Positions 3,617-43,720 of a stretch of DNA of 43,761 nt are shown here, one piece after another. Origin of the DNA: an uncultured Pseudomonadota bacterium (GTDB lineage Bacteria; BMS3Abin14); NCBI GenBank assembly GCA_964454175.1, contig CAYVSA010000003.1, positions 24,000 to 67,760 of the forward strand. Direction: 5' to 3'. Each line of letters starts with the position of its first letter. Positions within the stretch are counted from its first letter, which is position 1. The notes beneath the pieces were generated by a model that saw only the letters and a program-made list of their open reading frames with translations, was not told the DNA's origin and made no database searches. The position numbers and the translations under genes were made by a program.

Positions 3617-3646
3617 GTCCAAGGTCCAATGTCCAAAGTCCAACGT
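3617..3646. repeat. Heptamer array (GTCCAAN)4, left arm of a 30-bp inverted repeat
   Basis: GTCCAAG GTCCAAT GTCCAAA GTCCAAC GT. Confidence 0.9.
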
Positions 3647-3672
3647 ATAGAATACATTTAAAACGAATTATG

Positions 3673-3706
3673 AATCCCCCGGGGTCTCCCCCGGGGGATT
3701 TTATTT
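3673..3706 (+). terminator. Intrinsic terminator after pilX-like gene
   Basis: Perfect 12-bp stem AATCCCCCGGGG / CCCCGGGGGATT, 4-nt loop, T-rich tail. Confidence 0.85.
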
Positions 3707-3732
3707 ATGTGCAGAGTGTCAGATATTAGAAA

Positions 3733-3763
3733 ACCAATCACCAATCACCACTCACTAAATACT
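3733..3763. repeat. Heptamer array (ACCAATC-type)
   Basis: ACCAATC ACCAATC ACCACTC ACTAAAT ACT. Confidence 0.8.
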
Positions 3764-3782
3764 CCTCGCGCGCTACGAGTCC

Positions 3783-3824
3783 ACGTTGAACCTTGGACGT
3801 TGGACCTTGGACGTTGGACTTTGT
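3783..3824. repeat. Heptamer array (ACNTTGG)6, right arm, reverse complement of 3617-3646
   Basis: ACGTTGA ACCTTGG ACGTTGG ACCTTGG ACGTTGG ACTTTGT. Confidence 0.9.
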
Positions 3825-3938
3825 CCACCACCCACAATTAATTGTGGTTTTGAATAGAGTTGAATACATAATGTTGTGGATATCGTTTAAGTGTTAAGTA
3901 TAACTAACGGTAATGAAAGGATTTTTTAAATTTTTTAC

Positions 3939-3967
3939 TTGACAAACGTTTTTGGATTAATCATAGT
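3939..3967 (+). promoter_or_regulatory. sigma70-type promoter of HTH-pilMNOPQ
   Basis: TTGACA-N17-CATAGT in an AT-rich tract. Confidence 0.6.
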
Positions 3968-4037
3968 TACGCTAAATTTTTCCATATTAGGCAAAATTTG
4001 GTGTTAATTAAGTAAAATTAAGAGATTGAGGAAGGAC

Positions 4038-4259
4038 ATGAATAAGGCTAAGAAAGATCGGGGAGAAAACAATAACGTCAGGAACCTCAGGGAAGCGAGG
4101 ATGATGTCCAAGGCTGAGCTTGCAAGGTCGGCCGGGGTGTCTGCCCTCACCATCGACAGGGTCGAGAAAGGTTTCCCCTGCCGTATGGACACCAAGAGAA
4201 AGATCATCAAGGCGCTGGGAATGAGGTTGGACGAACGAGAGAGTGTATTTCTCGATTAG
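4038..4259 (+). CDS. XRE/Cro helix-turn-helix protein
   Basis: 'VRNLREARMMSKAELARSAGVSALTIDRVEKG' HTH_3 pattern; a small HTH gene before pilM is typical of this group. Start placed at ATG 4038 after GAGGAAGG. Confidence 0.9.
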   Translation: MNKAKKDRGENNNVRNLREARMMSKAELARSAGVSALTIDRVEKGFPCRMDTKRKIIKALGMRLDERESVFLD

Positions 4260-4271
4260 GGGAGGATTTAG

Positions 4272-5330
4272 ATGGCACTGTTCTCTAGTGGAAAAGTTCT
4301 GGCCGGGCTGGACATCGGATCCAGTTCCATCAAATTAGTCCAGCTCAAGGAGACGGGCAAGGGCTACAGGCTTGTCAACTTCGGTATTCGTCCGCTCCCC
4401 CAGGAAGTAATAGTTGACGGCGCCATAATGGATGCCGGGGTAATAAGCGACACCATCAGGGAGATGGTTAAGGAGATAAAGCTGAAGGTAAAGGATGTGG
4501 CAGTTTCTGTTTCGGGGCATTCAGTTATCATCAAGAAGATCAAGGTCCAGGAAATGACCGAGGAAGAACTGGACAAGAACATCCAGTTCGAGGCCGAACA
4601 GTACGTTCCCTTCGATGCATCCGAAGTGAATATGGATTTCGTGATCCTCGGAGCATCAGAGGACGAGGGCAAGATCGATGTCCTCCTCGTTGTTGTCAAG
4701 AAGGATGTCATCAATGACCTGACTACTGTGGTCAACGATGCCGGGCTCAACCCTGTTGTAGTTGATGTCGATGCCTTTGCCCTGGAAAACATGTATGAAA
4801 CAAACTATGTCCTGACATCTGATGAGGTCGTTGCACTTGTAAATGTCGGGGCCTCGACCACCAACATCAATATCATCAAAGACGGTATTTCAATTTTCAC
4901 ACGGGATATTTCCGTGGGCGGGAACCAGTTCACGGAAGCTTTGCAAAAGCAGCTGCAGGTGAGCTTCGAGGATGCCGAGCTGCTCAAACGGGGTGAACCG
5001 GTCGGAGAGAAGGGCCCTGAGGACGTTGAGCCGATCATGGGGGTTATCGCCGATAACCTGGGACAGGAGGTTCAGCGTTCACTTGACTTTTTCAATTCCT
5101 CCAACCCTGATGTGCAGCTTAACAGGGTCTCCCTCTGCGGCGGTGGTTCAAAGGTCAAACCCATCGTTAAGGCCATTGAGCAGAGGCTGGGCATACAGGT
5201 TGAGATCGCAAATCCCGTTGAGAGCATCAATTACAACAGGAAAAAGTTCGATCCGGAATACCTTGAGGATGTCGCTCCCCAGCTTGGAGTCGGGCTGGGG
5301 CTTGCTATCAGAAAGGCCTTCGACCGATGA
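4272..5330 (+). CDS. pilM: Type IV pilus assembly protein PilM
   Basis: Actin-like motifs GLDIGSSSIK, NVGASTT, LCGGGS; first gene of MNOPQ. Confidence 0.97.
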   Translation: MALFSSGKVLAGLDIGSSSIKLVQLKETGKGYRLVNFGIRPLPQEVIVDGAIMDAGVISDTIREMVKEIKLKVKDVAVSVSGHSVIIKKIKVQEMTEEELDKNIQFEAEQYVPFDASEVNMDFVILGASEDEGKIDVLLVVVKKDVINDLTTVVNDAGLNPVVVDVDAFALENMYETNYVLTSDEVVALVNVGASTTNINIIKDGISIFTRDISVGGNQFTEALQKQLQVSFEDAELLKRGEPVGEKGPEDVEPIMGVIADNLGQEVQRSLDFFNSSNPDVQLNRVSLCGGGSKVKPIVKAIEQRLGIQVEIANPVESINYNRKKFDPEYLEDVAPQLGVGLGLAIRKAFDR

Positions 5331-5893
5331 TTAAGATCAATCTGCTCCCGGTACGAGAAGAGAGAAGAAAATTAAGCGCCCGGCAGGAGAAATTATTTTA
5401 TTTCCTTGTCCTGATCCTGGTGTTCATCGGTGTCTACTACTGGCACTCGTCAACATCCAGGAAGATAAAGGATATGCGGGCACAGGTCGTTCAGACCGAC
5501 CAGGAGATAAACCGCCTTTCCAAGGTCGTCAAGGAAGTCGAAAAATTTAAAAAGGACAAGAAGGTACTTGAAGAAAAAATCAGCGTTATTCAGCACCTTA
5601 AACAGAACCGTAAGGCAGAAGTCCATTACCTGGATGAGATCAACAAGGCACTGCCGCGACAGGTGTGGCTGGTCTACTACCAGGAGAGGGGCGGCAATGT
5701 CGTGATCAGGGGTAAATCCCTTTCGACGGACGGAATTGCGGATTTCATGAGAAACCTGGACAGTTCATCCTTCTTCAAGGAGGTTGAGCTGGATGTTACC
5801 ACCCAAAAGGACATGAATCTGGGTGACAGAGTTTTGAAGATCAACGATTTCTCCCTTCGCTGCAAGGCATTGGGCAGCGGGGGGAAAGTGTAA
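5327..5893 (+). CDS. pilN: Type IV pilus assembly protein PilN
   Basis: N-terminal INLLP motif, single TM, coiled coil. Confidence 0.95.
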   Translation: MIKINLLPVREERRKLSARQEKLFYFLVLILVFIGVYYWHSSTSRKIKDMRAQVVQTDQEINRLSKVVKEVEKFKKDKKVLEEKISVIQHLKQNRKAEVHYLDEINKALPRQVWLVYYQERGGNVVIRGKSLSTDGIADFMRNLDSSSFFKEVELDVTTQKDMNLGDRVLKINDFSLRCKALGSGGKV

Positions 5894-5911
5894 CCCTGAA
5901 AGGGGGAGAAG

Positions 5912-6490
5912 ATGGCAATTGATGCCGAATCCATAGCCAATCTGTCGCCCAGGAAAAAGGCACTGCTCCTTATCGTGGTTGCAGGTATTATTGTGGGGCT
6001 TTACTGGCACCTGGTATACAGGAGCAAGGCGAGGGTGCTCAGGAGCCTCCAGGGCCAACTCAGCTCAAAACAGGCCAAGCTCAATGAAAACCAGGCCATT
6101 GCCCGCAACCTGCCGAGGTTCAAGTCTGAAGTGGGCAAACTCAACGAGAAGCTCAAGCTGGTTGTAAAGGAGCTTCCCAACAGCAGGGAAATACCCAACA
6201 TCCTGCAGACGTTAAACAACCTTAGCGCCATCAATGGATTAGAGGTTGTCTTCATTAAGCCAAGGCGGGATGTCGACAAGGGTTTTTATGCTGAAGTCCC
6301 GATCCAGATCAAAGTGCGGGGCGGCTACCATGAAGTGGGGATGTTCCTCGATTCTGTCAGCAAGCTTCCGCGGATCATCAATATCAGCGACATTACCCTT
6401 GGAAATCCCAGGGATGACAAGAGCGGGGCGATGACCCTCGACGTCAGCGCCCTGGCTACAACCTACCGCTACGTTGAGAAGGGGGACTGA
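5912..6490 (+). CDS. pilO: Type IV pilus assembly protein PilO
   Basis: TM plus coiled coil; 'LPNSREIP', 'FYAEVPI', 'GGYHEVGMF', 'LPRII'. Confidence 0.95.
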   Translation: MAIDAESIANLSPRKKALLLIVVAGIIVGLYWHLVYRSKARVLRSLQGQLSSKQAKLNENQAIARNLPRFKSEVGKLNEKLKLVVKELPNSREIPNILQTLNNLSAINGLEVVFIKPRRDVDKGFYAEVPIQIKVRGGYHEVGMFLDSVSKLPRIINISDITLGNPRDDKSGAMTLDVSALATTYRYVEKGD

Positions 6491-6493
6491 CAG

Positions 6494-7048
6494 ATGCAAT
6501 CGGCTACGCGCGGTCTCCGTTACTGGATGCCGCTCCTGATCCTGACATTGGCAGCAGGTGGAACTATCCTGGGCTGCGGCAAGTCATCTCCGACACCTGC
6601 AAGCAAACCGCTGCCGACCCTGAAAAGGCCGAAAGCGCCCGCCGCTTCCGCGAAGGCTTCTACATCCGGTTCGGCAGTCGCAGCAGGTGAGTTTAATTAC
6701 GATCCTTCAGGCTTCAGGGATCCATTTCTGTCCCTCCTGCAGGTGAAGAAGGTGAGGGACCAGGTCCCTCTGGAAGAACTCACACCACTGCAGAAGGTCT
6801 CGCTGGCCGACCTGCGGCTCCAGGGGATCATCCTCCTGGGGAAAAAAGGCGTTGCCCAGGTGCTCACCCCGGACGGGAAGGCCCACGTGGTGACCCCGGG
6901 TACTCTTGTTGGTCGAAACAGGGGTAAAGTACTCAAGATTACTTCTGATGAAGTTATTGTACAGGAAGAATTCGAAGATTACCTTGGGCAGAAAGTTAAA
7001 CAGGAAACTGTCCTCAGGCTGCATACGCTAGAAGGGGAGACTTTGTGA
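6494..7048 (+). CDS. pilP: Type IV pilus lipoprotein PilP
   Basis: Lipobox ILGC; 'YDPSGFRDPF'; 'PDGKAHVV...VGRNRGKV'. Confidence 0.93.
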   Translation: MQSATRGLRYWMPLLILTLAAGGTILGCGKSSPTPASKPLPTLKRPKAPAASAKASTSGSAVAAGEFNYDPSGFRDPFLSLLQVKKVRDQVPLEELTPLQKVSLADLRLQGIILLGKKGVAQVLTPDGKAHVVTPGTLVGRNRGKVLKITSDEVIVQEEFEDYLGQKVKQETVLRLHTLEGETL

Positions 7049-9855
7049 TGAATATTTTGTTCAGGAAGTTACCGTTGGCACTGCTTGCCGCAGCAGTATT
7101 TGTTGCGGGCTGTGCAGGCCCCGGGGGGCAGATGCGGGCTTCGGTGGAGGAGGCTGCGGTAGCCAGAGTCCTTTCGGTGACCGGAGAGGACCTGCCGGAT
7201 AGGGTTCGTCTGACGATCGAGGGTACTTCTCCCCTGGCCTATACTGTTTTCAGGCTTTCGGAACCGGCCAGGCTGGTGGTTGACCTTGCCGACACTGATG
7301 TTACAGGCGTCGGATCCGATGTAGATATTTCCCTCGGCAGTGTTTCTACCGTAAAGCCCGTACAGTATGATGAAGAAGCGGGCAAGATCGGTAGGCTTGA
7401 GATCTCTCTTTTCGAACTCTGGGATTACGAGACCTCCAGGGAGGAAAATAATGTTATCGTCGATTTTCTCAAGCCTGTGGCAGTGCCTGAGGAAACTGCA
7501 CAGGTCCCCGCTGAGGTCGGACCGGCAACAGAGTTGGAAGTGGTCGAGCTGACTGTACAGGAACCGGATACTGGGGCGCAGCCTGCTGGATCTGAAATGT
7601 CGCAGGCCGCGGAACCCTTACCAATGGTCAGTATGGAGCCTGCCACCGTCATCAGCGAGGTTGTTTTTTCTGAAACAAGTGACGGGATGGATGTTGAATT
7701 TATTGGTGACGGCGCCGTGGGTAAATACGACGCTTTGAACCTCAAGAGTCCCACGCGTCTCGTAATCGATATCTGGGGTGTCGAAAAGGGCTTCAAACCG
7801 CGGGTCATTCCTGTCGACACATACGACGTCAGCCGTATCAGGGTTGGTGAACATCGCACGGAAGGGAAATTGAGGTTCGTCCTGGACTTTGGAATTGAAG
7901 ATGTCCCCCCGTACAGGATCCAGGAGATCGGCGACAGGCTGATTGTTTCACTGGGAGTCGAGCAGGCACCTGAGATCACAATGGCCGAGCCGGTAAGTGC
8001 ACCTGCACCGGAGCCGGTACAGGTACCTGAGCCTGAGCCGGTTAAAATGGCGGCGGAAGAGACAGTAGCAGCGCCTGCGGCAGTCCAGGAATCCGCGCCA
8101 GAGGTAGTGGTCCAGGGAGCGGGTGTATCTGACATACGCTACAGGGCGGAAGGTGGGGATGGCACCGTAATGGTGATCTCAGACTCTCCGGTGTCCTACA
8201 GCGTCAGCCAGCCAGATCAGGGGCACCTTCTGGTTGATCTGGAAGGTGTGGAACTCTCAGCAGAGTTCGTGCGCAGTATCGACACCAGGGACGAGGGCGG
8301 ACCCCTAAAGGCCCTTTCCTCCTTCAACCCCAAAGACCAGGCCGGAGCAAGGGTGAGTCTCACGGTTGAGCCTGGGACGCTGTTCGATATCGATCAATCT
8401 GGGGGTACCCTCTCGGTCCTCCTGACCGGACCGGTTGTAAAACAGCCAGTCGAGGAAACAGTGATCGCCGAAACCACAGAGCCGATACCGGTTGAGGCAC
8501 CGGCTCCGCCCGAGATGGAACCAGCCCCGGAACCGGCGGTCGTAACCGCTCCGCCTGTGAAGGCGGCACCAGTGGTCCGTTCAGAACCGGAAGACATTGC
8601 ACCTGTTGTGTCGGGCACTGTTTATTCCGGCGAGCTCATTACGCTGGATTTCCAGGACGCGGACCTTAAGAATGTTCTAAGGCTCATTGCTGAAGTCAGC
8701 GGGCTTAACATAATCACCAGCGACGATGTGGGCGGCAAGATCAGCATGAGAATGGTCAACGTTCCCTGGGACCAGGCCCTTGAGGTTATCCTGAAGACAA
8801 AGGGACTTGGTCAGGTGAAGGAACTCAACGTTGTGAGGATAGCTCCTCTCAATAAGCTTGAGAGCGAGCGTACAGCTGCCTTAAAGGCCAAGGAAGCACA
8901 GATGAAGGCGGAGGATCTGCACCTCAAGATCGTTCCCCTGAGCTATTCCAAGGCAGATGAAGTTGTGACACAGCTTACCGGTTTTTTAAGTTCCCGCGGA
9001 AGTATAAATACGGACAGGAGAACAAACTCCCTCATAGTGAAGGATCTTGCGGACAATATCACCAGGATAGTTGAGCTGGTGGACAAGCTGGATATACCCA
9101 CCCCGCAGGTCAGAATCGAGGCCAGGATCGTCATAGTCGACGAGTCATACTCAAAGACCCTGGGCATCAAATGGGGCGGCGCCTACAACGATGGGAGCAC
9201 GGTCATCTTTGGAAATACAGCCAGTTCCGACGCATCCTTCGGAGGAGGGAATTTCCTCGTGAACCTGCCTGCATCCAGTCCGACCGCGGTCTTAGGTTTT
9301 TCCTTCGGAGGAATTACAAACTTCGACAACCTGGATCTGCGTCTGAGCGCCATGGAACAGGCCGACAAGGGAAGAATAATTTCCAGTCCCACACTTATGG
9401 TCATCCAGAACGAGACCGCCAATATAGAGGTGAACAACCCCTTCCCGGAAAACAGGACATCAACCGAGGTGACCGACACCGGCACTACCACCACCACCTC
9501 AGTGTCCTTCCCAAGCATCTGGACAAAGCTCAAGATCACTCCCCAGGTCACCAGCAACGAGGACATCTTCATGGAAGTTGCCGTGGAAAAAGACAGCAAG
9601 GGACAGCAGGCTACTTTCGACCAGAATACATTCACCGGAGTTAACAGCCACAAACTTGAGACAAAGATCGTTCTGGACAATCACGGTACGGCGGTAATCG
9701 GCGGAGTTTATACAGAAAACAAGAAAAACGGGGGAAGTGCGGTTCCGTTCTTCTCCAAGATACCGATTTTTGGATGGCTCTTTAAGAACAAGTCCATCGA
9801 CAACACCAGAGAGGAGCTCCTGATCTTCATTAATGCCTCGATTGTCGAGGGTTAA
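7048..9855 (+). CDS. pilQ: Type IV pilus secretin PilQ with AMIN domains
   Basis: Lipobox VAGC; three AMIN-like repeats (RLVVDL, RLVIDI, LLVDL); N0 'ITLDFQDADLKNVLRLIAEVSGLNII'; secretin C-terminus 'VPFFSKIPIFGWLFK..REELLIFI'. Start is GTG 7045 or ATG 7048. Confidence 0.97.
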   Translation: MNILFRKLPLALLAAAVFVAGCAGPGGQMRASVEEAAVARVLSVTGEDLPDRVRLTIEGTSPLAYTVFRLSEPARLVVDLADTDVTGVGSDVDISLGSVSTVKPVQYDEEAGKIGRLEISLFELWDYETSREENNVIVDFLKPVAVPEETAQVPAEVGPATELEVVELTVQEPDTGAQPAGSEMSQAAEPLPMVSMEPATVISEVVFSETSDGMDVEFIGDGAVGKYDALNLKSPTRLVIDIWGVEKGFKPRVIPVDTYDVSRIRVGEHRTEGKLRFVLDFGIEDVPPYRIQEIGDRLIVSLGVEQAPEITMAEPVSAPAPEPVQVPEPEPVKMAAEETVAAPAAVQESAPEVVVQGAGVSDIRYRAEGGDGTVMVISDSPVSYSVSQPDQGHLLVDLEGVELSAEFVRSIDTRDEGGPLKALSSFNPKDQAGARVSLTVEPGTLFDIDQSGGTLSVLLTGPVVKQPVEETVIAETTEPIPVEAPAPPEMEPAPEPAVVTAPPVKAAPVVRSEPEDIAPVVSGTVYSGELITLDFQDADLKNVLRLIAEVSGLNIITSDDVGGKISMRMVNVPWDQALEVILKTKGLGQVKELNVVRIAPLNKLESERTAALKAKEAQMKAEDLHLKIVPLSYSKADEVVTQLTGFLSSRGSINTDRRTNSLIVKDLADNITRIVELVDKLDIPTPQVRIEARIVIVDESYSKTLGIKWGGAYNDGSTVIFGNTASSDASFGGGNFLVNLPASSPTAVLGFSFGGITNFDNLDLRLSAMEQADKGRIISSPTLMVIQNETANIEVNNPFPENRTSTEVTDTGTTTTTSVSFPSIWTKLKITPQVTSNEDIFMEVAVEKDSKGQQATFDQNTFTGVNSHKLETKIVLDNHGTAVIGGVYTENKKNGGSAVPFFSKIPIFGWLFKNKSIDNTREELLIFINASIVEG

Positions 9856-9872
9856 CAGAAACAGATCACCGG

Positions 9873-9911: not shown

Positions 9912-9921
9912 GGAGGTTGCG

Positions 9922-21121: not shown

Positions 21122-21197
21122 GCGGGCATAACTCAGTTGGTAGAGTGTCAGCTTCCCAAGCTGAAAGTCGCGGGTTCGAATCCCGTTGCCCGCTCCA
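21122..21197 (+). tRNA. tRNA-Gly (CCC)
   Basis: Acceptor GCGGGCA/TGCCCGC, D arm ACTC/GAGT, anticodon stem TCAGC/GCTGA with CCC at 21155-21157, TTCGAAT T-loop, U73, encoded CCA. Confidence 0.98.
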
Positions 21198-23637: not shown

Positions 23638-23789
23638 TGTCTTCGTGATGATCAAAGCAGCCCATGGCCTGCTATTATCCCCTTCATCCCTGCTAGACAA
23701 TAGAGAATCAAACCCTAATTTCCAGTACTATATTTTCCAATTTCCAATACCTCTGAAATTACCACTCTTAAAGTTTATTCTCACTATGC

Positions 23790-23820
23790 TTGACAGAAAC
23801 CCTTGAATTATCTATATAAT
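23790..23820 (+). promoter_or_regulatory. sigma70-like promoter of zapB-like/zapA
   Basis: TTGACA-N19-TATAAT: consensus hexamers with a long spacer. Confidence 0.55.
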
Positions 23821-23832
23821 ATCAGACAAGTC

Positions 23833-24039
23833 ATGGGTAAAAAGGGATTAACAAATGCTTTTATCGAACTGGAAGAGGCTGTTGACAGGCTCCTCTCCCG
23901 CGGTGGCGGTTCTGAAGGCGGTGTTACAGGCAAGGCCGCCGGGGGAGCATTGAAGCGTTCCCCTGAAACCAGCTTTACCGAAAAAGAGGCTGCGGAGCTG
24001 ATCCGTAAGGCTATAGAACGACTCAAGGCCCTCTATTAA
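23833..24039 (+). CDS. Small protein in the ZapB position
   Basis: 68 aa directly upstream of zapA; amphipathic ends 'FIELEEAVDRLL' and 'LIRKAIERLKAL'. Confidence 0.6.
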   Translation: MGKKGLTNAFIELEEAVDRLLSRGGGSEGGVTGKAAGGALKRSPETSFTEKEAAELIRKAIERLKALY

Positions 24040-24068: not shown

Positions 24069-24341
24069 ATGCCTGGAAGAGTTGATGTTGAAATATTTGG
24101 GAAAGTCTATACCGTCAGGGGTGAGAAAGATCCTGAATACGTTAGACGTGTCGCTGAGTATGTCGACCGGAAGATGCGGGAGATATCACAGGTTACTGAT
24201 ACTGTATCAACCTCTCGCATTGCCATCCTGGCAGCTCTGAACATTGCCGATGAATTCTTTTCTCTTACCGAAGAGTCAGACCAGCTTGAAAACAGGATAG
24301 AAAGCCTTTCCAGGAAGATAGGGAAGGCTCTGGATGGTTAG
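24069..24341 (+). CDS. zapA: Cell division protein ZapA
   Basis: 'VEIFGKVYTV', 'VAEYVDRKM', 'AILAALNIADE'. Confidence 0.95.
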   Translation: MPGRVDVEIFGKVYTVRGEKDPEYVRRVAEYVDRKMREISQVTDTVSTSRIAILAALNIADEFFSLTEESDQLENRIESLSRKIGKALDG

Positions 24342-24462: not shown

Positions 24463-24468
24463 AATGCT

Positions 24469-24644
24469 GCCCCTGCCCTGCCCGTGGAGGCCTGTTACTT
24501 TTGAGCCAACACTCGGAGGATGGGACTTTAGTCGTGGGTGTGGTGAGCATGTTCGCGAGAGCGAAAAGCCTGAAGCGCCCCGCGCGAGACCCACTTGGTA
24601 GGCCAGGTTCAAAAGACGAACTACCACACGGTTCGGTGGGGGTT
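24469..24644 (+). ncRNA. ssrS: 6S RNA
   Basis: Conserved zapA-6S-cyclo-ligase position; closing stem GCCCCTGCC..CCGTG / CACGG..GGTGGGGGT; CTTTTGAGCC / GGTTCAAAAG helix flanking a central bubble. Ends approximate. Confidence 0.88.
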
Positions 24645-24908
24645 CTGGAAGCTCCTGGACCGGTCCTATGGGGCCAGTGGGGTCCAGTTCGATATAAAAC
24701 TTGAAGAACACTTTTGAGACGCTATTTTAAGCTTTACAGGCAGAACCTGCCTTGTCAGATACACTCGAATACTCTGTTCCGGGCTGTTGTACTTCAGTTG
24801 TGGTTTTAGCTATGGGTGTTTGAGCGGGTATTAGATCAACTTCAAGTTTAGGACTGCACCTCTACAGGCCTCTCCGGTTCCAGCGTCACGTGAGAACTGG
24901 GGGGGTTT

Positions 24909-25511
24909 TTGTCTTTTAACCCGATTATTGAAAAGCAGGAGTTGAGGGACCGCATGCGTGCCATGCGCCAGGCGCTCCCCCCTGAGGACGTCGGCAATCA
25001 CAGCTTTGAGATTGCCAGGCGGATCATGGCGTTGGGGGAAGTGGCTGATTCTGAGACGGTCTGTATTTACGCCAGTGTCGGCAAGGAGGTTCAGACCGGT
25101 TTTCTTAAGAAGAGTTTTCTGCAATCGAAAAAAAGGGTGATCATTCCAGATTGGGAGGGCTGGAAGCTGGGTTCCGGGATAAGGCTTGCCCAGATTTTCA
25201 GTCAGAATGATGTACTCAGGGAGGACAGGGTCGTCCCTCAGCCACGGCAAACTACGGACCGGGCGATACCTGCAGAGGAAGTCGAACTTTTTCTCGTTCC
25301 CGCGCTTGCTTTCGACAGGTCCGGAAATCGACTTGGCATGGGAGGCGGATATTTTGACAGATTACTGAAACTGGCTTCCCCGAGGGCGACAATTATCGGG
25401 ATGGCTTTTGAGTTTCAGATAGTGAGGACTCTGCCCAGGGAGAAACACGACGTTCCCGTTAACCAGATTGTGACCCAGGCCGCGGTCAGGATCTGCAGGG
25501 ACTTTCAATAG
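24909..25511 (+). CDS. 5-formyltetrahydrofolate cyclo-ligase
   Basis: 'KQELR', '[22 protein letters not shown]', 'HDVPV'. Confidence 0.95.
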
Positions 25512-27107: not shown

Positions 27108-27172
27108 CCAGGTATTAGAAACAAGAAAATCGGAAATTTGAGTTCTGGATATTGGATGCAGGGCATTGAACG
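27108..27172. repeat. Degenerate heptamer array
   Basis: CCAGGTA TTAGAAA CAAGAAA .. CTGGATA TTGGATG CAGGGCA TTGAACG; TAGAAACAAGAAA is identical to 42716-42728. Confidence 0.6.
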
Positions 27173-29252: not shown

Positions 29253-29399
29253 GTTCCAGGTTCCAGGTCTCAGGATTTTTCACCACAGAGATCACAGAGG
29301 AAAACCTTGGTTTGGGGTTAAGTCAGAATATCAACTAACAACTTTCAAACATACATTTCCAATGCTCTAATCTCCAATATCGAATCTCGAATATCGTAA
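29253..29399. repeat. Composite 7-mer/9-mer arrays
   Basis: GTTCCAG GTTCCAG GTCTCAG; CCACAGAGA TCACAGAGG; TATCAAC TAACAAC TTTCAAA; CTCTAAT CTCCAAT ATCGAAT CTCGAAT ATCGTAA. Confidence 0.8.
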
Positions 29400-31547: not shown

Positions 31548-31601
31548 CAGGGGGCAATATAACCAACAATAAATAAAAATCAAGGGGGAGTTTAAATAAA
31601 A

Positions 31602-31704
31602 GTTTCAAGTTCCCAGTTTCAGGTTCCAGGTTTTCAAGTACTGGCAGCTGATCACTGTCTTACTAACCACCCCGACATCCCCATACTCCGATACCCTGAT
31701 ACGT
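31602..31704. repeat. Composite 7-mer and 8-mer arrays
   Basis: GTTTCAA GTTCCCA GTTTCAG GTTCCAG; ACTGGCA GCTGATC ACTGTCT; ACCCCGAC ATCCCCAT ACTCCGAT ACCCTGAT. Confidence 0.8.
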
Positions 31705-38746: not shown

Positions 38747-39754
38747 ATGACACTATCACTGAGTGAAAACGAAATTTTCGAATCGGTCTTTCTTCTAAAA
38801 GAGATATCAGAATCCAGGACCAGGACCGGCAAACCCTACCTCGCCATGGTGCTTGGTAATTCCGGGGCAGACTTTACGGCCAGAATGTGGGACATGGAGA
38901 TGAGATCCCTGCCCTCGCTTAACCAGGGCGATGCAGTCCGGGCAAAGGGAACTGCAGTACTTTACCAGGAGCAGATCCAGCTAAAGGTAGATTCGATCTC
39001 GCGTGAGACCTCTGATGTGGATATGCGCCTTCTCTATCCTTCTTCAAGGTATACCGAGGATCAGTTGAGGTCAGAATTTAATGACCTGGTCAAGGGCCTC
39101 AGGGATGAGAAGGTGCTGTCGTTATTTAACGAGATGAAAAAAGACAACAATTTTTTCGGCAGGTTCTTTACTGCTCCAGCTGCCATGGCCATGCACCATG
39201 CCAGGATCGGTGGGCTTGTCGAACACACCCTGGGAGTTGCCAGGCTGGCCTTGTCCGTAGCTGATCAGTATCCCTGGCTCAGACGCGATCTTGTCCTGGC
39301 GGGAAGTCTCCTCCACGATGTGGGGAAGGTTCATGAATATGAAATCAGCGGTTCGTTTGAGATAACTGCGTCGGGGCGGATGCTGGGGCACATTACGATC
39401 GGGGTTATGATGCTCGATGAGTGGCTCAACCGGGCGGGAGTCATCGGAGAGGGAGATTTCCTGGACCTCAAGCACATTCTGCTGAGCCACCATGGTAAGC
39501 TGGAACACGGTTCACCCAGGGAACCGGCCATCCCGGAGGCCCTTGTCGTCCACTTTGCGGACGATCTGGATGCCAAGCTGGATATGTTAAGGGACGCTTC
39601 TCTTGGAGCTTCCGGTGAGGGCCGGGACACAGCAGGGGCTTATGTAAGGGGTCTCAGAAGGTTTTTTTTCTTCGGGCCTGACCTGGAGGCGGCTGCTCGC
39701 GAGCCGGAACCATCAGAAGATGGGGATAGCGATGATCAGGGATCATTGTTCTAG
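38747..39754 (+). CDS. YhaM/Cbf-family 3'-5' exonuclease (OB + HD)
   Basis: OB 'GKPYL..ARMW', 'PAA..MHHA..GGLVEHT', 'LLHDVGK', 'ILLSHHG', 'HFADDLDA'. Confidence 0.92.
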   Translation: MTLSLSENEIFESVFLLKEISESRTRTGKPYLAMVLGNSGADFTARMWDMEMRSLPSLNQGDAVRAKGTAVLYQEQIQLKVDSISRETSDVDMRLLYPSSRYTEDQLRSEFNDLVKGLRDEKVLSLFNEMKKDNNFFGRFFTAPAAMAMHHARIGGLVEHTLGVARLALSVADQYPWLRRDLVLAGSLLHDVGKVHEYEISGSFEITASGRMLGHITIGVMMLDEWLNRAGVIGEGDFLDLKHILLSHHGKLEHGSPREPAIPEALVVHFADDLDAKLDMLRDASLGASGEGRDTAGAYVRGLRRFFFFGPDLEAAAREPEPSEDGDSDDQGSLF

Positions 39755-39757
39755 ACG

Positions 39758-40468
39758 ATGAAGGGTCGTGTTTTCACTATAGTTCCGGCCGCCGGGTCAG
39801 CGCTGAGAATGGGATTGGGATACAGTAAGGCATACCTTGATGTACTGAACGTTCCCCTTCTGGCACGAACCCTTAAGGCACTACTTGACAGTACTTTGGT
39901 CGACAGTATTATTACCGCAGTTCGTCCGACAGAGACCGACCTGTGCAGGAGGGAGATACTGGAAAAATATGATCTGGGAGACAGGGTAGAAGTCATCGGA
40001 GGTGGCGAGCACAGACAGCAGACTGTGGCGGCTCTCCTTGACAGGATGATCCCGGGGAAGGATCTGATCCTCGTACACGACGGCGCCAGGCCATTTGTTT
40101 CGCCTCTGCTGATAAAGGAGGTTCTGGAAGCCGCCGTGATGTGGGGCGGCGCTGTGCCGGCTGTTTCTGCTACGGATACCGTAAAGATCTCCGAGGATCT
40201 TGGACAGACTGTGACATCAACCCTTGACCGAAAAAAGATCTTCATGGCTCAGACGCCCCAGGCTTTTCAGAAGGAGGTTCTGATCGCTGCCCACAAAAAA
40301 GCAAAAAAGACGGGTTTTATGGGTACTGACGATGCCTCCCTGGTGGAATGGGCAGGTTACCCGGTCAGGATCGTGCCCGGCGATCGAGGGAACATCAAGG
40401 TTACAACCCTCGATGACCTGGAAATGTGCAGGTGGATTATTAGTAGTAAAGATTCATCTCCCAATTAG
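39758..40468 (+). CDS. ispD: MEP cytidylyltransferase
   Basis: 'VPAAGSALRMG', 'GGEHRQ', 'VHDGARP', 'QTPQAF', 'TDDASL', 'NIKVTT'. Confidence 0.97.
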   Translation: MKGRVFTIVPAAGSALRMGLGYSKAYLDVLNVPLLARTLKALLDSTLVDSIITAVRPTETDLCRREILEKYDLGDRVEVIGGGEHRQQTVAALLDRMIPGKDLILVHDGARPFVSPLLIKEVLEAAVMWGGAVPAVSATDTVKISEDLGQTVTSTLDRKKIFMAQTPQAFQKEVLIAAHKKAKKTGFMGTDDASLVEWAGYPVRIVPGDRGNIKVTTLDDLEMCRWIISSKDSSPN

Positions 40469-40494
40469 CATGAATATTCTGTAAGAGGTGAAAA

Positions 40495-40980
40495 TTGACC
40501 GCACCAGTGTTCAGAATTGGGACAGGTTACGACGCGCACCGTCTTGTGGAGGCCAGGCCTCTGGTTCTTGGCGGGGTCAGGATAGAGTACGACCGCGGGC
40601 TTGAGGGTCATTCGGATGCCGATGTTGTGGCCCATGCACTAACAGATGCGCTGCTTGGTGCAGCCGCCCTTGGTGATATCGGAACCCTTTTCCCGGACAC
40701 TGATGATGCTTTCAGAGATGCTGACAGTATTGGTCTTCTGAAAATTGTCATAAAGCGGATTGCCGATCTGGGCTGGGAAGTTTCCAACGTCGATGTAACT
40801 GTTCTGGCGGAAAAACCCGTAATAGCTCCCTTTATTGATGAAATGGTGCTCAACGTCGAAAACACAGGTATCGGGAAGGGCAGGGTTAACATCAAGGCTA
40901 CCCGTGGCGAGGGGATGGGGTTTATCGGGAGGCAGGAGGGGATTGCAGCCCTGGCTGTGGCCTTGCTTGTAAGGGCGTAA
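40495..40980 (+). CDS. ispF: MEcPP synthase
   Basis: 'RIGTGYDAH', 'GHSDADV', 'DIGTLFPD', 'NIKAT'. Confidence 0.97.
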   Translation: MTAPVFRIGTGYDAHRLVEARPLVLGGVRIEYDRGLEGHSDADVVAHALTDALLGAAALGDIGTLFPDTDDAFRDADSIGLLKIVIKRIADLGWEVSNVDVTVLAEKPVIAPFIDEMVLNVENTGIGKGRVNIKATRGEGMGFIGRQEGIAALAVALLVRA

Positions 40981-41200
40981 GGGGGTAAGGGAGTGAGGGG
41001 GTGTCGAGGTATCGAAGTGAATTTGGAATGGGTATCAGGGGTCAAGGTATCAGGCATCAGCATGGATAGTAATATGCAGGCAACTGAAAACTGGCACCTG
41101 ATTCCTGGCTCCTGTCAACATAACAAGAAACTAGAAACCAGAAACTTGGAACTTTGACTTTAACCTGGGTCCCGGGACGTGGGACGTGGGACCTGGGACT
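40969..41200. repeat. Composite 8-mer and 7-mer arrays filling the ispF-cysS gap
   Basis: GTAAGGGN x3 then GTGAGGGG GTGTCGAG GTATCGAA; GGTATCA-type; NNCTGNN x5; AACNAGA x3 then AACTTGG; ACNTGGG-type x5. Confidence 0.9.
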
Positions 41201-41228
41201 CCGGCCATAGGCCAGCACAGGAGAGAGA

Positions 41229-42686
41229 ATGTCACTGCGAGTCTACAACACTCTGAGCGGGAAAAAAGAGGAGTTCATACCAATTGATCCCCCGAAGGTG
41301 GGCATTTACGCCTGCGGCGTAACGGTCTACGATTATTGCCATATCGGGCACGCCAGGTCAGCTATTGCTTTTGATGTGATTAGAAGGTACCTGGAATTTT
41401 CGGGCTACGAGGTAACCTACGTCAGGAACTATACGGATGTTGATGACAAGATAATAAACAAGAGCCTCGAGGAGAAAAAGGACTGGAGGGAAATTGCTGA
41501 AACTTACATCAGTGCCCACGATGAAGACATGGAAGCCCTCGGTATCCTCCAGCCTCACAGTGAGCCGCGCGCTACGGACTATATACAGCATATAATAGCG
41601 GTGGTCAGTAAGCTGGAAGAAAAGGGATTTGCCTATAATGTGGAAGGTGACGTTTACTATGAGGTCAGCAAACTGAAGCAGTACGGCAAGCTGTCGGGCC
41701 GAAAGCCGGACGAACTTCGCGCTGGAGCGCGGATTGAGGTGGACGGCAGGAAAAAGGACCCTCTCGATTTCGCCTTGTGGAAGAAATCCAAGACTGGAGA
41801 GCCTGTGTGGGACAGTCCATGGGGTGGCGGCAGGCCGGGGTGGCATATAGAATGCTCGGCCATGGCCATGGCGATACTCGGTGAGACCTTCGATATCCAC
41901 GGCGGGGGGAAAGACCTTATTTTCCCGCACCACGAGAATGAAATAGCACAATCGGAGGCGGCCAACGAAAAGCCCTTTGCCAGGTACTGGCTTCACAACG
42001 GCTTCGTAAATATAGACAACGAGAAGATGTCCAAGTCCCTTGGGAATTTCTTTACAATAAGGGAAGTGCTCGGAAAATACCCTTCCGAGGTGATCCGTCT
42101 TTTTTTGCTCTCGACCCATTACCGGAGCCCACTGGATTTTTCCGATAGCCATCTTGATGAGGCCAGGGTGAGATACGAACGCTTCATGCACTTCTTTATC
42201 AGGATCTCCAGATTAACGGCGGCGGAAAGGGACCTGAGTGGTTATGAAGATGATGCCGAAGCCTACCTTAATGATGTAGCGCTTCCGGCTTTCACTGGGG
42301 CAATGGACGATGATTTCAACACGGCGGCAGCTTTAGGCCATCTCTTTTCAACTATCGCCATTCTCAACGGGGCTATGGACAGGGCGGAAGCATCAGACGG
42401 GCTTGTCAGCGCCGGGCTGATCGATGAAGTTGACAAATTTTTCATTAGCACCGGCTCGGTACTGGGACTTTTCGAGGGTGGGATAAAGGAAGGTAACCGA
42501 TACTTCGGAATTGAAGAAGCCGCTGGGGATGTCGATGATGAGGCCCACGCCCTCCTCACCGAGAGGGAAAAGGCCAGGCAGGAAAAAGACTGGGTCAGGG
42601 CTGATGAGCTCAGGGACCGTATTGCCGACCTGGGATACTCTATTCAGGATACACCCGGCGGCGCGACGCTGATACCGATCAAATGA
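41229..42686 (+). CDS. cysS: Cysteine--tRNA ligase
   Basis: 'CGVTVYDYCHIGHAR', 'GRPGWHIECSAM', 'KMSKS'. Confidence 0.99.
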   Translation: MSLRVYNTLSGKKEEFIPIDPPKVGIYACGVTVYDYCHIGHARSAIAFDVIRRYLEFSGYEVTYVRNYTDVDDKIINKSLEEKKDWREIAETYISAHDEDMEALGILQPHSEPRATDYIQHIIAVVSKLEEKGFAYNVEGDVYYEVSKLKQYGKLSGRKPDELRAGARIEVDGRKKDPLDFALWKKSKTGEPVWDSPWGGGRPGWHIECSAMAMAILGETFDIHGGGKDLIFPHHENEIAQSEAANEKPFARYWLHNGFVNIDNEKMSKSLGNFFTIREVLGKYPSEVIRLFLLSTHYRSPLDFSDSHLDEARVRYERFMHFFIRISRLTAAERDLSGYEDDAEAYLNDVALPAFTGAMDDDFNTAAALGHLFSTIAILNGAMDRAEASDGLVSAGLIDEVDKFFISTGSVLGLFEGGIKEGNRYFGIEEAAGDVDDEAHALLTEREKARQEKDWVRADELRDRIADLGYSIQDTPGGATLIPIK

Positions 42687-42705
42687 CCATGGAACAGGTG
42701 TCTGC

Positions 42706-42789
42706 AGCCGGAAACTAGAAACAAGAAACCAGTAACTCGTACTTGTAAGGTGAGGGAAAATGGGTGAGATGCGAGGCCAAAGAGAGGAG
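42706..42789. repeat. Heptamer arrays after cysS
   Basis: AACTAGA AACAAGA AACCAGT AACTCGT; then AGGTGAG .. GGGTGAG ATGCGAG .. AGAGGAG. Confidence 0.8.
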
Positions 42790-42805
42790 AAAACCGGAGG
42801 TCTAT

Positions 42806-42871
42806 ATGACCATACATCGAGGATTTCCGACGACTGAGAACAAAGTAGATGGGCACTTCACGGGAATCTGA
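42806..42871 (+). pseudogene. 21-codon ORF; possible vestige of a four-helix-bundle (IVP-like) gene
   Basis: GGAGG-N5-ATG; MTIHRGF; removing one base gives MTIHRGFRRLR. Confidence 0.3.
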
Positions 42872-42900
42872 ACAGGCTCTGCGGCCAACCCGGGAGAGAT

Positions 42901-43641
42901 ATGGATGAAACACAGATACTAACCGGAATCCAACCAGTAACGGAAGCTCTAAAGCACCGACGCAGACCCCTGTACCGTCTCCTGCTCTCCAGGAAAACCG
43001 GGACCCGCGAGATAACAGGCGTGGCGAAAGATGCCAGCGTTGAAGTGGTTTTCAAGGATACAGAGGAGCTGTCCCGGTTGGCCGGCACCAGCAAACATCA
43101 GGGTGCCCTTCTGGAATGTGGGCCCCTTCCTGAATTCGATCTGGATGAACTGCTTCGCTTTGAGCCTTCATCGGGAAACGACCTTCTCCTCCTGGTATCC
43201 GGAGTAGAAGATCCCAGGAATATCGGGGCGATCGCCCGCTGTTGTTCATTCCTTGGTGTGAGGGCAATGCTGGTGCCCGGCAAGGGTGCTGCACCCGTCA
43301 GCCCCGCCGCTTCGCGAACTTCAGCCGGGGCCCTGGAAAGCCTGCCTGTATGCCGGGTATCATCGGCAGTCTCGGCGTGTCGTCGGATGGTTTCCGCGGG
43401 TTTTGAAGTAACGGGAGTGGAATTGGGGGGGGAGCCCCTCGAATCGTGGAAGGTGATATCAATTAAAAACCTGCTGGTAATGGGTGGAGAGGATAAAGGT
43501 GTGACGGGGCGATTGAAGGCTGAATGCACACGGCTGGTAACTATTCCCGGCAGCGGAGCAGTCAAGTCGCTGAACGTTTCTGTTGCGGCAGGGATCGTAC
43601 TATACCATGTGAGTGTAAATCAGCTGAAAGTCGAGAGATGA
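42901..43641 (+). CDS. rlmB: 23S rRNA G2251 2'-O-methyltransferase (TrmH family)
   Basis: 'HQG', 'EDPRNIGAIAR', 'MGGEDKGV', 'SLNVSVAAG'; follows cysS. Confidence 0.93.
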   Translation: MDETQILTGIQPVTEALKHRRRPLYRLLLSRKTGTREITGVAKDASVEVVFKDTEELSRLAGTSKHQGALLECGPLPEFDLDELLRFEPSSGNDLLLLVSGVEDPRNIGAIARCCSFLGVRAMLVPGKGAAPVSPAASRTSAGALESLPVCRVSSAVSACRRMVSAGFEVTGVELGGEPLESWKVISIKNLLVMGGEDKGVTGRLKAECTRLVTIPGSGAVKSLNVSVAAGIVLYHVSVNQLKVER

Positions 43642-43720
43642 ACGTTGAAGTCTTAATGCGCAACCAGTTTCTAATACTCTGATTTCTGATGTTCTAATTT
43701 TCATTGCTCCAATATCTAGT
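43622..43720. repeat. Heptamer arrays overlapping and following the rlmB stop
   Basis: AGCTGAA AGTCGAG AGATGAA CGTTGAA; TTCTAAT, CTCTGAT TTCTGAT, TTCTAAT, CTCCAAT ATCTAGT. Confidence 0.7.

Follow-up and report, generated by a model that had tools for sequence, protein, structure and literature searches.

Heptanucleotide tandem arrays at gene junctions of an uncultured deltaproteobacteria-like bacterium and their possible tie to hairpin cassettes around PF05635 genes

What are the short tandem arrays that recur between genes in this stretch of DNA, and how might they have come to be there? The window, by which we mean the whole 43,761-nucleotide stretch that was analysed, belongs to an uncultured, non-cyanobacterial and non-photosynthetic lineage with a 2.2-Mb genome (G000). 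Gene content and nearest relatives point to deltaproteobacteria-like MAGs, RNase Y places it nearest, among named relatives, to Syntrophorhabdus-type MAGs, and the 16S rRNA has no assembled copy in G000. The first-pass annotation had described arrays of period 7, 8 or 9 with freely varying units in eight spacers, and had proposed an undescribed system, either arms or scars of a small cassette family or repeats written by a dedicated enzyme. With arrays called by TRF at a score of at least 30, the features of the window are as follows.

3617..3643, no strand: GTCCAAN array of 3.9 units (TRF), 11 nt past the stop of a PilX-like gene; left arm of an inverted pair
3672..3700, plus strand: terminator-like GC-rich hairpin with a T run after it, situated in the loop that separates the arms; 13-bp stem in the fold
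3733..3755, no strand: ACCAATC array of 3.3 units (TRF), within the loop of the 3617–3823 hairpin
3783..3823, no strand: NTTGGAC array of 5.9 units (TRF); right arm of the empty hairpin
23713..23750, no strand: weak array, TTTCCAA, 2.1 units (23734–23748), with a TRF score of 30, equal to the threshold
27108..27172, no strand: degenerate period-7 stretch at the rny–ymdB junction, no TRF row; fold z=-0.4
29253..29268, no strand: GTTCCAG array of 2.3 units (TRF), 9 nt past the xseA stop
29365..29396, no strand: CTC(N)AAT-type array of 4.6 units (TRF), adjoining a bidirectional terminator hairpin common to xseA and groEL
31600..31639, no strand: AAGTTTC/AGGTTCC array of period 14, 2.8 units (TRF), in the divergent groES/DUF502 promoter region; fold z=-0.5
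40969..41060, no strand: period-8 block, GTAAGGGN, 3.9 units (TRF 40969–40999), overlapping the ispF stop
41122..41146, no strand: AGAAACN array of 3.6 units (TRF), drifting unit by unit toward the next block
41174..41199, no strand: TGGGACN array of 3.7 units (TRF), a G3-tract unit, then a GGCCATAGGCC motif right before the cysS start
42706..42729, no strand: AGAAACN array of 2.7 units (TRF 42711–42729), 20 nt past the cysS stop; shared-word match
43660..43720, no strand: TTCTAAT/TCTGATT-type array (TRF 43678–43700, 3.1 units), 3' of a spoU-type methylase gene

The arrays themselves are confirmed. Seven of the eight spacers carry period-7 or period-8 arrays by TRF, with only 27108–27172 being degenerately periodic, and the stacking of several blocks within a spacer is real by sequence. 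Over the 20 intergenic regions of the window (4067 nt), lag identity gave z=7.9 at lag 7, 5.6 at lag 14, 0.6 at lag 8 and 0.3 at lag 9; the signal is therefore period 7 plus one period-8 block, and period 9 is unsupported. The words said to be shared between distant loci are exact: a 13-mer at 27116 and 42716, a 10-mer at 29372 and 43707, and the 9-mer core of that 10-mer on the minus strand at 27148, none of 100 shuffles reaching the observed count for any of the three. A start close to a stop codon, within about 26 nt, holds for six of the eight spacers. The exceptions are 31602–31704, in a divergent promoter region, and 23713–23750, whose weak array lies 76–97 nt 3' of a SPOR-domain gene and is unstructured (fold z=+1.1).

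Several of these blocks have counterparts elsewhere. The stretch at 27108–27172 contains a TTGGATA-type word as well as the shared word AGAAACN, and the same rny–ymdB junction holds clear arrays or array hairpins in relatives. Genome-wide, 26 arrays belong to the AACCTGG unit family of 29253–29268 and 28 to the ACCTGGG family of 41174–41199; the xseA/groEL bidirectional terminator hairpin is present in the fold. The period-8 block continues within 40969–41060 into GT(A/G)TCGAN and GGTATCA units, its period-8 unit families also flank cysS in relatives, and the block order is found again at other loci of the genome. In addition, the 41122–41146 array has BLAST matches in other intergenic regions, and the TTCTAAT/TCTGATT family comes after GTCCAAN arrays at several other loci.

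The enrichment of period 7 extends to the whole genome, where lag-7 autocorrelation reached z=27 and 366 period-7 arrays were found, against 35 in a genome simulated with a third-order Markov model. By position 306 arrays are intergenic, 11 straddling and 49 coding, which amounts to 1.02 per kb of intergenic and 0.026 per kb of coding DNA, a 39-fold difference, and at least one array is present in 180 of the 991 intergenic regions. The trait is family-wide: 12 of 13 sampled family genomes are array-rich, with 16.8–66.7 period-7 arrays per 100 kb, compared with 0–7.9 in four outgroups of normal GC. One DNA run yielded a small share of array words and no contig across an array.

Could replication slippage alone account for these arrays? 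On this view slippage both creates the arrays, as long simple sequence repeats, and alters their length, the replisome determines the size of the unit, and only DNA outside genes tolerates them. That arrays bracket PF05635 genes, as described below, would be a by-product of their ubiquity. The 39-fold avoidance of coding DNA fits well, and heptamers are reported to be the commonest of 5–11-nt repeats in many bacteria, for which Mrazek et al. 2007 proposed a polymerase-contact idea (as relayed in PMC4679880). Arrays also lie beside 16 of 270 contig ends and 8 of 72 scaffold gaps, above the 2.5% expected, and orthologous junctions of relatives have arrays with different units or none, both in keeping with slippage. 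So is the structure of the unit set, which forms a one-substitution network with drift along a stack. (In the stack at 41122–41199, gradual unit drift is also expected from slippage and mutation alone.) Yet the units are not free, as had been claimed, but come from a limited vocabulary: G000 uses 120 canonical units, the top eight of which account for 167 of the 366 arrays. A single unit can be found at as many as 33 unlinked loci, and relatives prefer other units, neither of which slippage would lead one to expect. Array length likewise speaks against it, since the distribution is non-monotonic in G000 and its relatives, with a second mode at 27–32 nt, or about four units (117 of 366 arrays in G000, 138 of 369 in relatives), and a steep drop past 33 nt. 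The earlier remark that the arrays are unlike plain slippage microsatellites holds up on these grounds. MutS and MutL genes are both present in G000, which excludes a loss of mismatch repair as the cause.

A MITE, with a conserved body between terminal inverted repeats, was considered and rejected, the flanks of same-unit arrays being mostly unrelated to each other. A few composite repeats exist in the genome, as do MITE-like elements, separate from the arrays.

One window spacer shows a further level of organization. The array at 3783–3823 is the reverse complement of that at 3617–3643, and the two pair into a stem of roughly 30 bp with a folding energy of -87 kcal/mol (z=-8.1), a stability that none of 200 shuffles reached. 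This spacer is an empty hairpin of the PF05635-cassette arm type. The inverted pairing was absent from the first-pass annotation. In contrast, the arrays of the other seven spacers are unpaired and no more stable than shuffles (solo-array z from -0.5 to +1.2). Across G000, inverted partners are no more frequent than direct ones: within 600 nt, 36 of 271 arrays have an inverted and 34 a direct partner, each about twice its control (17 and 18), and when only TRF units are used, inversion is seen in 11 of 112 neighbouring pairs, where chance would give 6.7%. A crude gene caller listed no genes within array pairs, but it missed a PF05635 gene that is enclosed by such a pair on contig C101.

PF05635 is the 23S-rRNA intervening-sequence (S23p)/Avd-like family, and its protein is a four-helix bundle without known catalytic activity. 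No PF05635 ORF lies in the window. The gene on C101 is the only one in G000; it is preceded by GACCAAN arrays and followed by NTTGGTC arrays, within one substitution of the genome's commonest unit family. Counting a gene as bracketed when its 260-nt flanks share at least three inverted 10-mers, we found inverted heptamer arms around 16 of 28 PF05635 genes across the family, compared with 20 of 1658 G000 genes (1.2%) and 2 of 136 ORFs in samples of G001 and G010, an enrichment of roughly 40-fold. By TRF, 17 of the 28 genes have a period-7 array on both sides. The 42 arrays that flank these genes are centred on 29–30 nt in length and comprise 29 distinct units; since most arm units differ between copies, the arms may arise on site instead of being carried along. 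Copies inside one genome share only 30–63% identity, so recent bursts are not evident.

Gene and arms move as one: from genus to genus, the AGTGATT-armed and GGTTCCA-armed subfamilies lie among unrelated neighbouring genes. Both arms can also be replaced together, as at one orthologous locus where they read CCAGGAG/CTCCTGG in G010 and G007 and AGTACCC/GGGTACT in G014. The arms of one G010 copy match the commonest unit of a random sample of that genome (6 of 53 arrays). Moreover, the filled and empty alleles that the first-pass annotation had proposed to look for in relatives were found at two orthologous sites. At the first, G010 holds the gene with its arms (697 nt), G014 an imperfect array hairpin with no gene, and G003 only 54 nt with no arrays; the second is filled in G001 (644 nt) and empty in G009 (93 nt). 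Slippage alone predicts neither the roughly 40-fold enrichment of inverted arrays at one gene family nor presence and absence as a whole unit, and we regard it as a rather unlikely sole cause.

We favour, with a probability of roughly 45%, the reading in which the heptanucleotide tandem arrays of the spacers belong to the STRR, or long-simple-sequence-repeat, class and are tied to hairpin cassettes bracketing PF05635 genes. An array would be a module of about four units (27–32 nt) taken from a genome-specific vocabulary of related 7-mers, and inverted module pairs would form stems of about 29 nt around small PF05635 genes, each gained, lost and relocated as a unit. Arrays may be brought into spacers by such hairpin cassettes, whose arms they form, or arise by the same hairpin-forming process. 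Loss of the cargo would then leave an empty hairpin, as at 3617–3823, and its decay would leave single or stacked orphan arms, as in the other window spacers. Slippage during replication and unit mutation would remodel the arrays, and the frameshifts that period-7 sequence causes would lead to its removal from coding DNA. The order of cassette first and orphan array later is presumed rather than observed, and it could be the reverse, small genes merely surviving inside hairpins of pre-existing arrays. PF05635 copies per Mb correlate with array density among 13 related genomes (Spearman 0.63), where the contigs of 8 of the 13 came from prior match lists, several with PF05635, and each copy can itself add up to two arrays. 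G004, which is 100% complete, has no PF05635 match, yet carries 18.7 arrays per 100 kb, and G000 has one such gene against 366 arrays. The earlier suggestion of cassette arms or scars is accordingly supported in part: the bracketed genes, the two filled/empty sites and the empty hairpin speak for it, whereas the lack of an inverted excess in G000 and the seven unpaired window spacers do not.

Alternatively, the arrays might be functional elements under selection at gene ends, acting as platforms for an RNA- or DNA-binding protein, RNase III processing stems or 3'-UTR G-quadruplexes. Their placement suits such a role. The median distance is 60 nt to a stop codon against 98 nt to the next start, and arrays are most frequent between convergent genes (32 of 119) and least between divergent ones (19 of 144). 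The same placement and four-unit preference are reported for the GGGNATC repeats, which are mostly transcribed and form G-quadruplexes in vitro (PMC4692102). Paired arrays form long stems, at 3617–3823 and, in two relatives, at the rny–ymdB junction (z=-5.3 and z=-6.7); G000 has an RNase III gene, and this enzyme cleaves the stem of 28 bp at the ends of an rRNA intervening sequence (PMC4990558). Nevertheless, the main units have no strand bias relative to transcription among the G000 arrays, as expected of slippage but not of a transcribed element, and arrays do not favour either side of terminator-like hairpins (15 arrays before, 24 after, 3 overlapping). The solo window arrays are, as noted, no more stable than shuffles. 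G3 tracts occur in the TGGGACN family, and in canonical names only in the ACCTGGG, ACCCAGG, AAGTCCC and ACATGGG families; most units, including the commonest (GTCCAAN, GGTTCCA and AGAAACN), have none. Of 26 syntenic junctions compared between the window and G001, 4 carry arrays in both, 2 carry them only in the window and 5 only in G001, and the units always differ. We consider selection for function improbable, and the solo arrays probably have none.

A dedicated writer, telomerase-like or a retroelement-type polymerase adding heptamers, perhaps with an Avd-like PF05635 partner, is scarcely credible: the period and module length are both fixed and PF05635 is similar to Avd, whose role is that of accessory protein in diversity-generating retroelements (PMC10053308), but neither an RVT_1 reverse transcriptase nor a Y1 transposase (PF01797) has a match in G000, which is 98.5% complete, leaving such an enzyme without support, 120 units per genome are hard to square with a templated writer, and no other candidate enzyme was found beside the cassettes in the loci examined. 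Nor did we find a recombinase able to move the cassettes.

How do the arrays compare with known systems? STRR sequences of filamentous cyanobacteria were reportedly described by Mazel et al. in 1990, and in the narrow sense the host of an STRR is a filamentous or heterocystous cyanobacterium. Here, as in the STRR and heptameric-repeat class, 7-nt units are repeated head to tail far above chance at many dispersed intergenic loci, with several unit families per genome, a few of them shared among loci, depletion from coding DNA and no known function. The host, in contrast, is deltaproteobacteria-like and non-photosynthetic with a genome of 2.2 Mb, and a module length of about four units and a link to PF05635 cassettes are documented here. 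RAYT genes are flanked by REPs, and the likeness to REP and REPIN elements is that a dispersed short repeat of gene ends also brackets, in inverted orientation, a single- or low-copy gene. Unlike those elements, the present repeats are tandem arrays rather than a fixed palindrome, only about 13% have an inverted partner, and no Y1-transposase gene was found in G000.

Heptamer arrays with these placement rules have already been published (PMC4679880 and PMC4692102), which removes the earlier claim of an undescribed system. The GGGNATC and GGGGA(C/T)T repeats of Xanthomonas and Nostoc (Rehm et al. 2015, PMC4692102) share the four-unit preference, the position near stop codons, the enrichment between co-oriented genes and the depletion from coding DNA and between divergent genes. 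They have a G3 tract in every unit, whereas only a minority of units do here; the commonest units cannot form a G-quadruplex, so quadruplex formation does not account for the four-unit preference here. The TAACTGA direct repeats of marine Beggiatoaceae, some Cyanobacteria and Bacteroidetes (MacGregor 2015, PMC4679880) are likewise intergenic and short, with 2–6 copies of a heptamer at each of many loci, and occur in a patchy range of lineages. There, a single unit stands in fixed orientation directly upstream of starts, while here many units, with no orientation bias, favour gene 3' ends.

Our literature searches found no link of heptamer arrays to PF05635 cassettes in print. A known, still unexplained class of bacterial repeats gains a new lineage, in which the repeats also form inverted arms around a gene that comes and goes between genomes. 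A parallel to that arrangement is the 23S rRNA intervening sequence with its S23p ORF (Warrier et al. 2016, PMC4990558), where a PF05635 ORF sits in an inverted-repeat stem of about 28 bp and presence is sporadic. A PF05635 gene in a stem of that kind is found on contig C101 and in relatives, not in the window. Rather than being inserted in a 23S rRNA helix, however, the cassettes lie between protein-coding genes at the loci examined, and their arms are tandem heptamers whose unit differs between copies.

The first-pass annotation had described arrays of fixed period 7, 8 or 9 at eight gene junctions of the window. Using TRF at a score of at least 30, we obtained period-7 or period-8 arrays in seven of the eight named spacers; the eighth (27108-27172) carries degenerate periodicity only, without a TRF row. 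Inspection of the sequences revealed stacked array blocks in the named spacers, and in the stack at 41122-41199 one unit drifts into the next. Across the window's 20 intergenic regions (4067 nt), compared with 200 shuffles, identity was raised at lag 7 (z=7.9) and lag 14 (z=5.6), with z=0.6 at lag 8 and z=0.3 at lag 9, indicating a period-7 signal joined by a single clear period-8 block (40969-40999). Of the three periods, 7 therefore stands, 8 survives as that one block and 9 drops out. The three words proposed to be common to distant loci are all exact, and their observed counts were reached in none of 100 shuffles. A start close to a stop codon, no more than about 26 nt away, was seen at six spacers and not at the other two.

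A relation unremarked in the first-pass annotation is that the arrays at 3617-3643 (GTCCAAN) and 3783-3823 (NTTGGAC) are reverse complements of each other. As RNA, 3617-3823 is predicted to fold into a stem of about 30 bp whose loop contains a terminator-like hairpin (-87 kcal/mol, z=-8.1), and none of 200 shuffles was equally stable. Structure in solo arrays was rejected, as the unpaired window arrays folded no better than shuffles (z -0.5 to +1.2). The other features of the window are as follows.

133-1557, 474-aa ORF, no Pfam match
1618-1682, GCGAAG-rich element of ~60 nt, recurring in five other intergenic regions
21122-21194, tRNA gene
~23671-23690, near copy of ATCCCCTTTATCCCTGC
23803-24039, 78-aa ORF upstream of zapA, no Pfam match
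24069-24341, zapA
24467-24646 (+), 6S RNA gene (Rfam RF00013, 84 bits)
24909-25511, 5-formyltetrahydrofolate cyclo-ligase gene
42747-42889, dispersed element of ~100-140 nt in the cysS-spoU spacer, not heptamer-built, 78-85% identical in six other intergenic regions
43722-43761 (contig end), start of a MITE-like dispersed element of ~170 nt
Genes for a PilX-like protein, PilMNOPQ, shikimate-pathway enzymes, EF-P, AccBC, ArgRS and ZapA
Genes for 6S RNA, RNase Y, YmdB, XseA, GroESL, IspDF and CysRS

The 6S RNA gene lies between zapA and the cyclo-ligase gene, the same neighbourhood as in E. coli. Contig C3, which carries the window, breaks inside the MITE-like element; the terminal motif of this element occurs 21 times in the genome at up to four mismatches, several times at contig ends, and a depth spike at 43722-43761 fits a multi-copy repeat (one DNA run, 0.19 of words present). 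No array is spanned by the contigs from that run.

Heptamer STRR arrays have been described from cyanobacteria; a cyanobacterial origin was rejected here on the window's gene content and nearest relatives, neither of which is cyanobacterial. The long same-strand gene run was likewise rejected as a prophage, being made up of pilMNOPQ and housekeeping genes. The closest RNase Y loci (74-89% identity) belong to uncultured MAGs labelled "bacterium" or "Proteobacteria bacterium", and the next tier (56-62%) to Syntrophorhabdus-type and other deltaproteobacterial MAGs.

We then considered the whole genome carrying the window (G000, the window spanning C3:24000-67760; 2.17 Mb in 135 contigs, rated 98.5% complete, 16S rRNA not assembled). 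Genome-wide TRF returned 957 non-redundant arrays. Period 7 accounts for 366 of them, versus 35 when the same contigs are simulated with a third-order Markov model, while the corresponding figures are 96 versus 62 for period 8 and 168 versus 47 for period 9. The enrichment of lag 7 over shuffles was borne out across all intergenic DNA of the genome (z=27). By our own crude gene calls (1873 ORFs by codon-usage score, 86% of the genome), 306 period-7 arrays are intergenic, 11 straddle gene boundaries and 49 are coding, that is, 1.02 versus 0.026 per kb. Period-9 arrays are predominantly coding (118/168) and period-8 arrays are divided (46 intergenic, 47 coding). At least one array is present in 180 of the 991 intergenic regions of at least 30 nt, including 32/119 convergent, 129/728 co-directional and 19/144 divergent ones, and the median distance is 60 nt to a stop versus 98 nt to the next start. 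Strand bias relative to transcription was rejected, since neither orientation with respect to the upstream gene is favoured by the main units, and so was a fixed order relative to terminator-like hairpins, with 15 arrays before, 24 after and 3 overlapping by a crude terminator finder. Period-7 arrays lie within 60 nt of 16 of 270 contig ends and within 30 nt of 8 of 72 scaffold gaps (100 N), each against an expected ~2.5%, which suggests that the arrays contribute to assembly breaks.

The repeat unit had been thought free; it is instead drawn from a limited vocabulary, in which 8 of 120 canonical period-7 units account for 167 of the 366 arrays. Variants of GTCCAAN contribute 67 arrays by themselves, and the main units lie one substitution apart (TGGAACN, TGGGACN, TTGGACN, AGAAACN). 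The flanks of same-unit arrays are mostly unrelated, and we rejected a larger mobile element with conserved flanks around each array because such flanks are mostly absent. Array length is bimodal: one peak, at 15-17 nt, is chance-like, and the other lies at 27-32 nt (117/366), beyond which numbers drop to 15 arrays of 33-35 nt and 5 of 36-38 nt. The same 27-32 nt mode recurs in pooled samples from 12 relatives (138/369 arrays) and is absent among 26 outgroup arrays. This points to a module of about four units.

Several composite elements were observed alongside the simple arrays. A composite of GTCCAAG, TTGGATA and GGGAC occurs at C2:69337-69889, C12:22344-22649, C36:6402-6948 and C54:4251-4536, and a tRNA-3'-end-like piece precedes the blocks on C2, C36 and C54 (3/4 loci). 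ARAGORN found no tRNA at the four loci, and tRNA-targeted integration could have left these pieces behind. Inverted composite arrays, 70-85 nt long, lie on either side of the uvrA gene (C52:465-3287), and at C106:3765-4142 the inverted ATCCCCTTTATCCCTGC motif of the period-8 family brackets a 125-aa gene whose N-terminus is GxxExxY-like.

The trait extends over the lineage. Each of seven close, whole-gene RNase Y loci from relatives carries 4-11 period-7 arrays and an eighth, partially matching one (L033, 83% identity) carries 2, while the other 72, more distant loci mostly have 0-1, with a maximum of 4. The family comprises 15 other listed genomes, in 8 other genera. When 47-100 kb of each genome were sampled, 12 of 13 family genomes had 16.8-66.7 period-7 arrays per 100 kb, and the remaining one (G002) had 6.0. 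Four outgroups of ordinary GC gave 0-7.9 per 100 kb, and a 27%-GC outgroup gave 17.5, with units that are A/T runs. Favoured units differ from genome to genome in the sampled family. Positional conservation between the window and the relative G001 is weak: in raw counts of syntenic junctions, arrays are present in both at 4, in the window only at 2, in G001 only at 5 and in neither at 15. At the rny-ymdB junction, near-perfect array hairpins directly follow the RNase Y stop in two relatives (L001:1240-1320 and L002:6100-6205; GACCAAN/NTTGGTC and ATCCAAG/CTTGGAT arrays; z=-5.3 and z=-6.7), unlike the window, which has only a degenerate array there.

We next asked about the proposal that the arrays are arms or scars of a cassette. 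Inverted pairing as a general rule was rejected for G000: among 112 neighbouring array pairs no more than 400 nt apart, 11 were inverted and 11 direct (chance 6.7% each), and in a sensitive scan of 271 arrays, 36 had an inverted and 34 a direct partner within 600 nt, versus 17 and 18 in random intergenic controls. Inverted pairs enclose 7-581 nt, and none of them contains a gene according to our crude gene caller. The widest (581 nt, contig C101) nevertheless encloses a gene that the caller had missed. This is the genome's single PF05635 gene (129 aa; S23p/Avd-like, of the 23S-rRNA intervening-sequence family). Its upstream arm reads CGTCCAA/CGACCAA/GGGCCAA/TGACCAA, its downstream arm consists of complementary NTTGGTC units, and a 100-N scaffold gap breaks the upstream flank.

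PF05635 genes are present in 13 of the 16 family genomes, with up to 14 matches per genome. Among the 28 loci with usable flanks (of 30 returned), 16 share at least three inverted 10-mers between their 260-nt flanks, against 20 of 1658 control genes in G000 and 2 of 136 ORFs in random G001 and G010 samples. TRF period-7 arrays lie on both sides at 17 of the 28, on one side at 6 and on neither at 5, and among the 42 flanking arrays the median length is ~29-30 nt and 29 distinct units occur. Filled and empty alleles, the predicted mark of a cassette, were seen at two orthologous sites. At the first, G010 holds the gene with its arms (697 nt between conserved flanks), G014 of the same genus holds a gene-less, imperfect GTGAACT/NTTCACT array hairpin (fold z=-1.7), and in G003, also of this genus, the 54 nt at the site include an ordinary A/T hairpin but no arrays. 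The second is filled in G001 (644 nt) but empty in the congeneric G009, which has 93 nt there and no arrays. The suggestion of arms or scars is thus supported in part, by the bracketed genes and the filled and empty sites, and not by pairing across G000.

Copies within a genome are only 30-63% identical. The arm units AGTGATT and GGTTCCA are each constant in one PF05635 subfamily across genera, in unrelated gene contexts. A third subfamily occupies one conserved context in three genomes, with CCAGGAG/CTCCTGG arms in two and AGTACCC/GGGTACT arms in the third, indicating that both arms were replaced together. Such paired change could reflect selection on an RNA stem, and it could equally reflect hairpin-templated repair of DNA. 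The arrays are real, lineage-wide and modular in length, and form the arms of a cassette with presence/absence and relocation.

From their common length and vocabulary, we infer a link between the arms and the dispersed arrays. The most frequent unit in a random G010 sample (6/53 arrays) is also the arm unit of one G010 copy, the arm unit of one G001 copy accounts for 2/41 arrays in a random G001 sample, and the G000 arms are within one substitution of that genome's commonest unit family. PF05635 copies per Mb correlate with array density among related genomes (Spearman 0.63, p=0.02, n=13), although 8 of the 13 were sampled on contigs from earlier hit lists, several with PF05635 genes, so that each gene copy raises the counts by as many as two arrays. 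We put at roughly 0.45 the probability that the window's arrays are for the most part arms left orphaned or stacked, with 3617-3823 as a hairpin that has been emptied. The arrays would subsequently be remodelled by slippage and by mutation of their units, and would be purged from coding DNA because a 7-nt period does not fit a reading frame of 3. A broader proposal, which we regard as rather unlikely, is that STRR-type heptamer arrays at large are orphaned arms of an intervening-sequence-type hairpin cassette, made of an S23p/Avd-like four-helix-bundle gene between inverted stems of four 7-nt units, that colonises intergenic spacers and rRNA.

Alternatively, the arrays may have come first, with small genes merely persisting inside hairpins. 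Set against a passage from arms to arrays are the single PF05635 copy for 366 arrays in G000, the 18.7 arrays per 100 kb in G004, a family genome without a PF05635 match, and the fact that no enzyme able to move the cassette was found. A reverse transcriptase or Y1 transposase was rejected for G000, where RVT_1 and Y1-transposase gave no match. Loss of mismatch repair was rejected because MutS and MutL genes are present in G000, as is an RNase III gene.

Should the orphan-arm reading be true, the repeats would be a readable record of an unrecognised selfish hairpin element; rRNA intervening sequences, Avd-like proteins and intergenic repeats would become connected, and a repeat class found across many bacterial phyla would gain one testable origin. 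Should the link fail, the window would be one more lineage with a known kind of repeat. The lineage, whose genomes are small and in several cases complete, provides three handles: a fixed module length of about 28-31 nt, a genome-specific vocabulary, and a heptamer-armed gene cassette for which one site can be filled, hollowed out or lacking the cassette altogether in different genomes of a genus.

Published work already covers heptamer arrays, with reports from Xanthomonas, Beggiatoaceae and others, as well as their scarcity in genes and their patchy occurrence (PMC4679880, which deals with Mrazek et al. 2007 too, and PMC4692102), so the window represents a new lineage for a known class; these two papers give no accepted origin or function. 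A literature search whose coverage omits most subscription journals turned up no paper connecting heptamer repeats with PF05635 or intervening-sequence proteins. PF05635 is reported to resemble Avd of diversity-generating retroelements (PMC10053308), but no reverse transcriptase match was obtained in G000. Published intervening sequences have a 28-bp stem cut by RNase III (PMC4990558). The module of about four units is like the GGGNATC repeats of Xanthomonas and Nostoc, for which a four-unit preference has been reported (PMC4692102). Finally, under the broader and less probable proposal, the dispersed arrays would stand to the PF05635 gene as REP sequences stand to RAYT genes.
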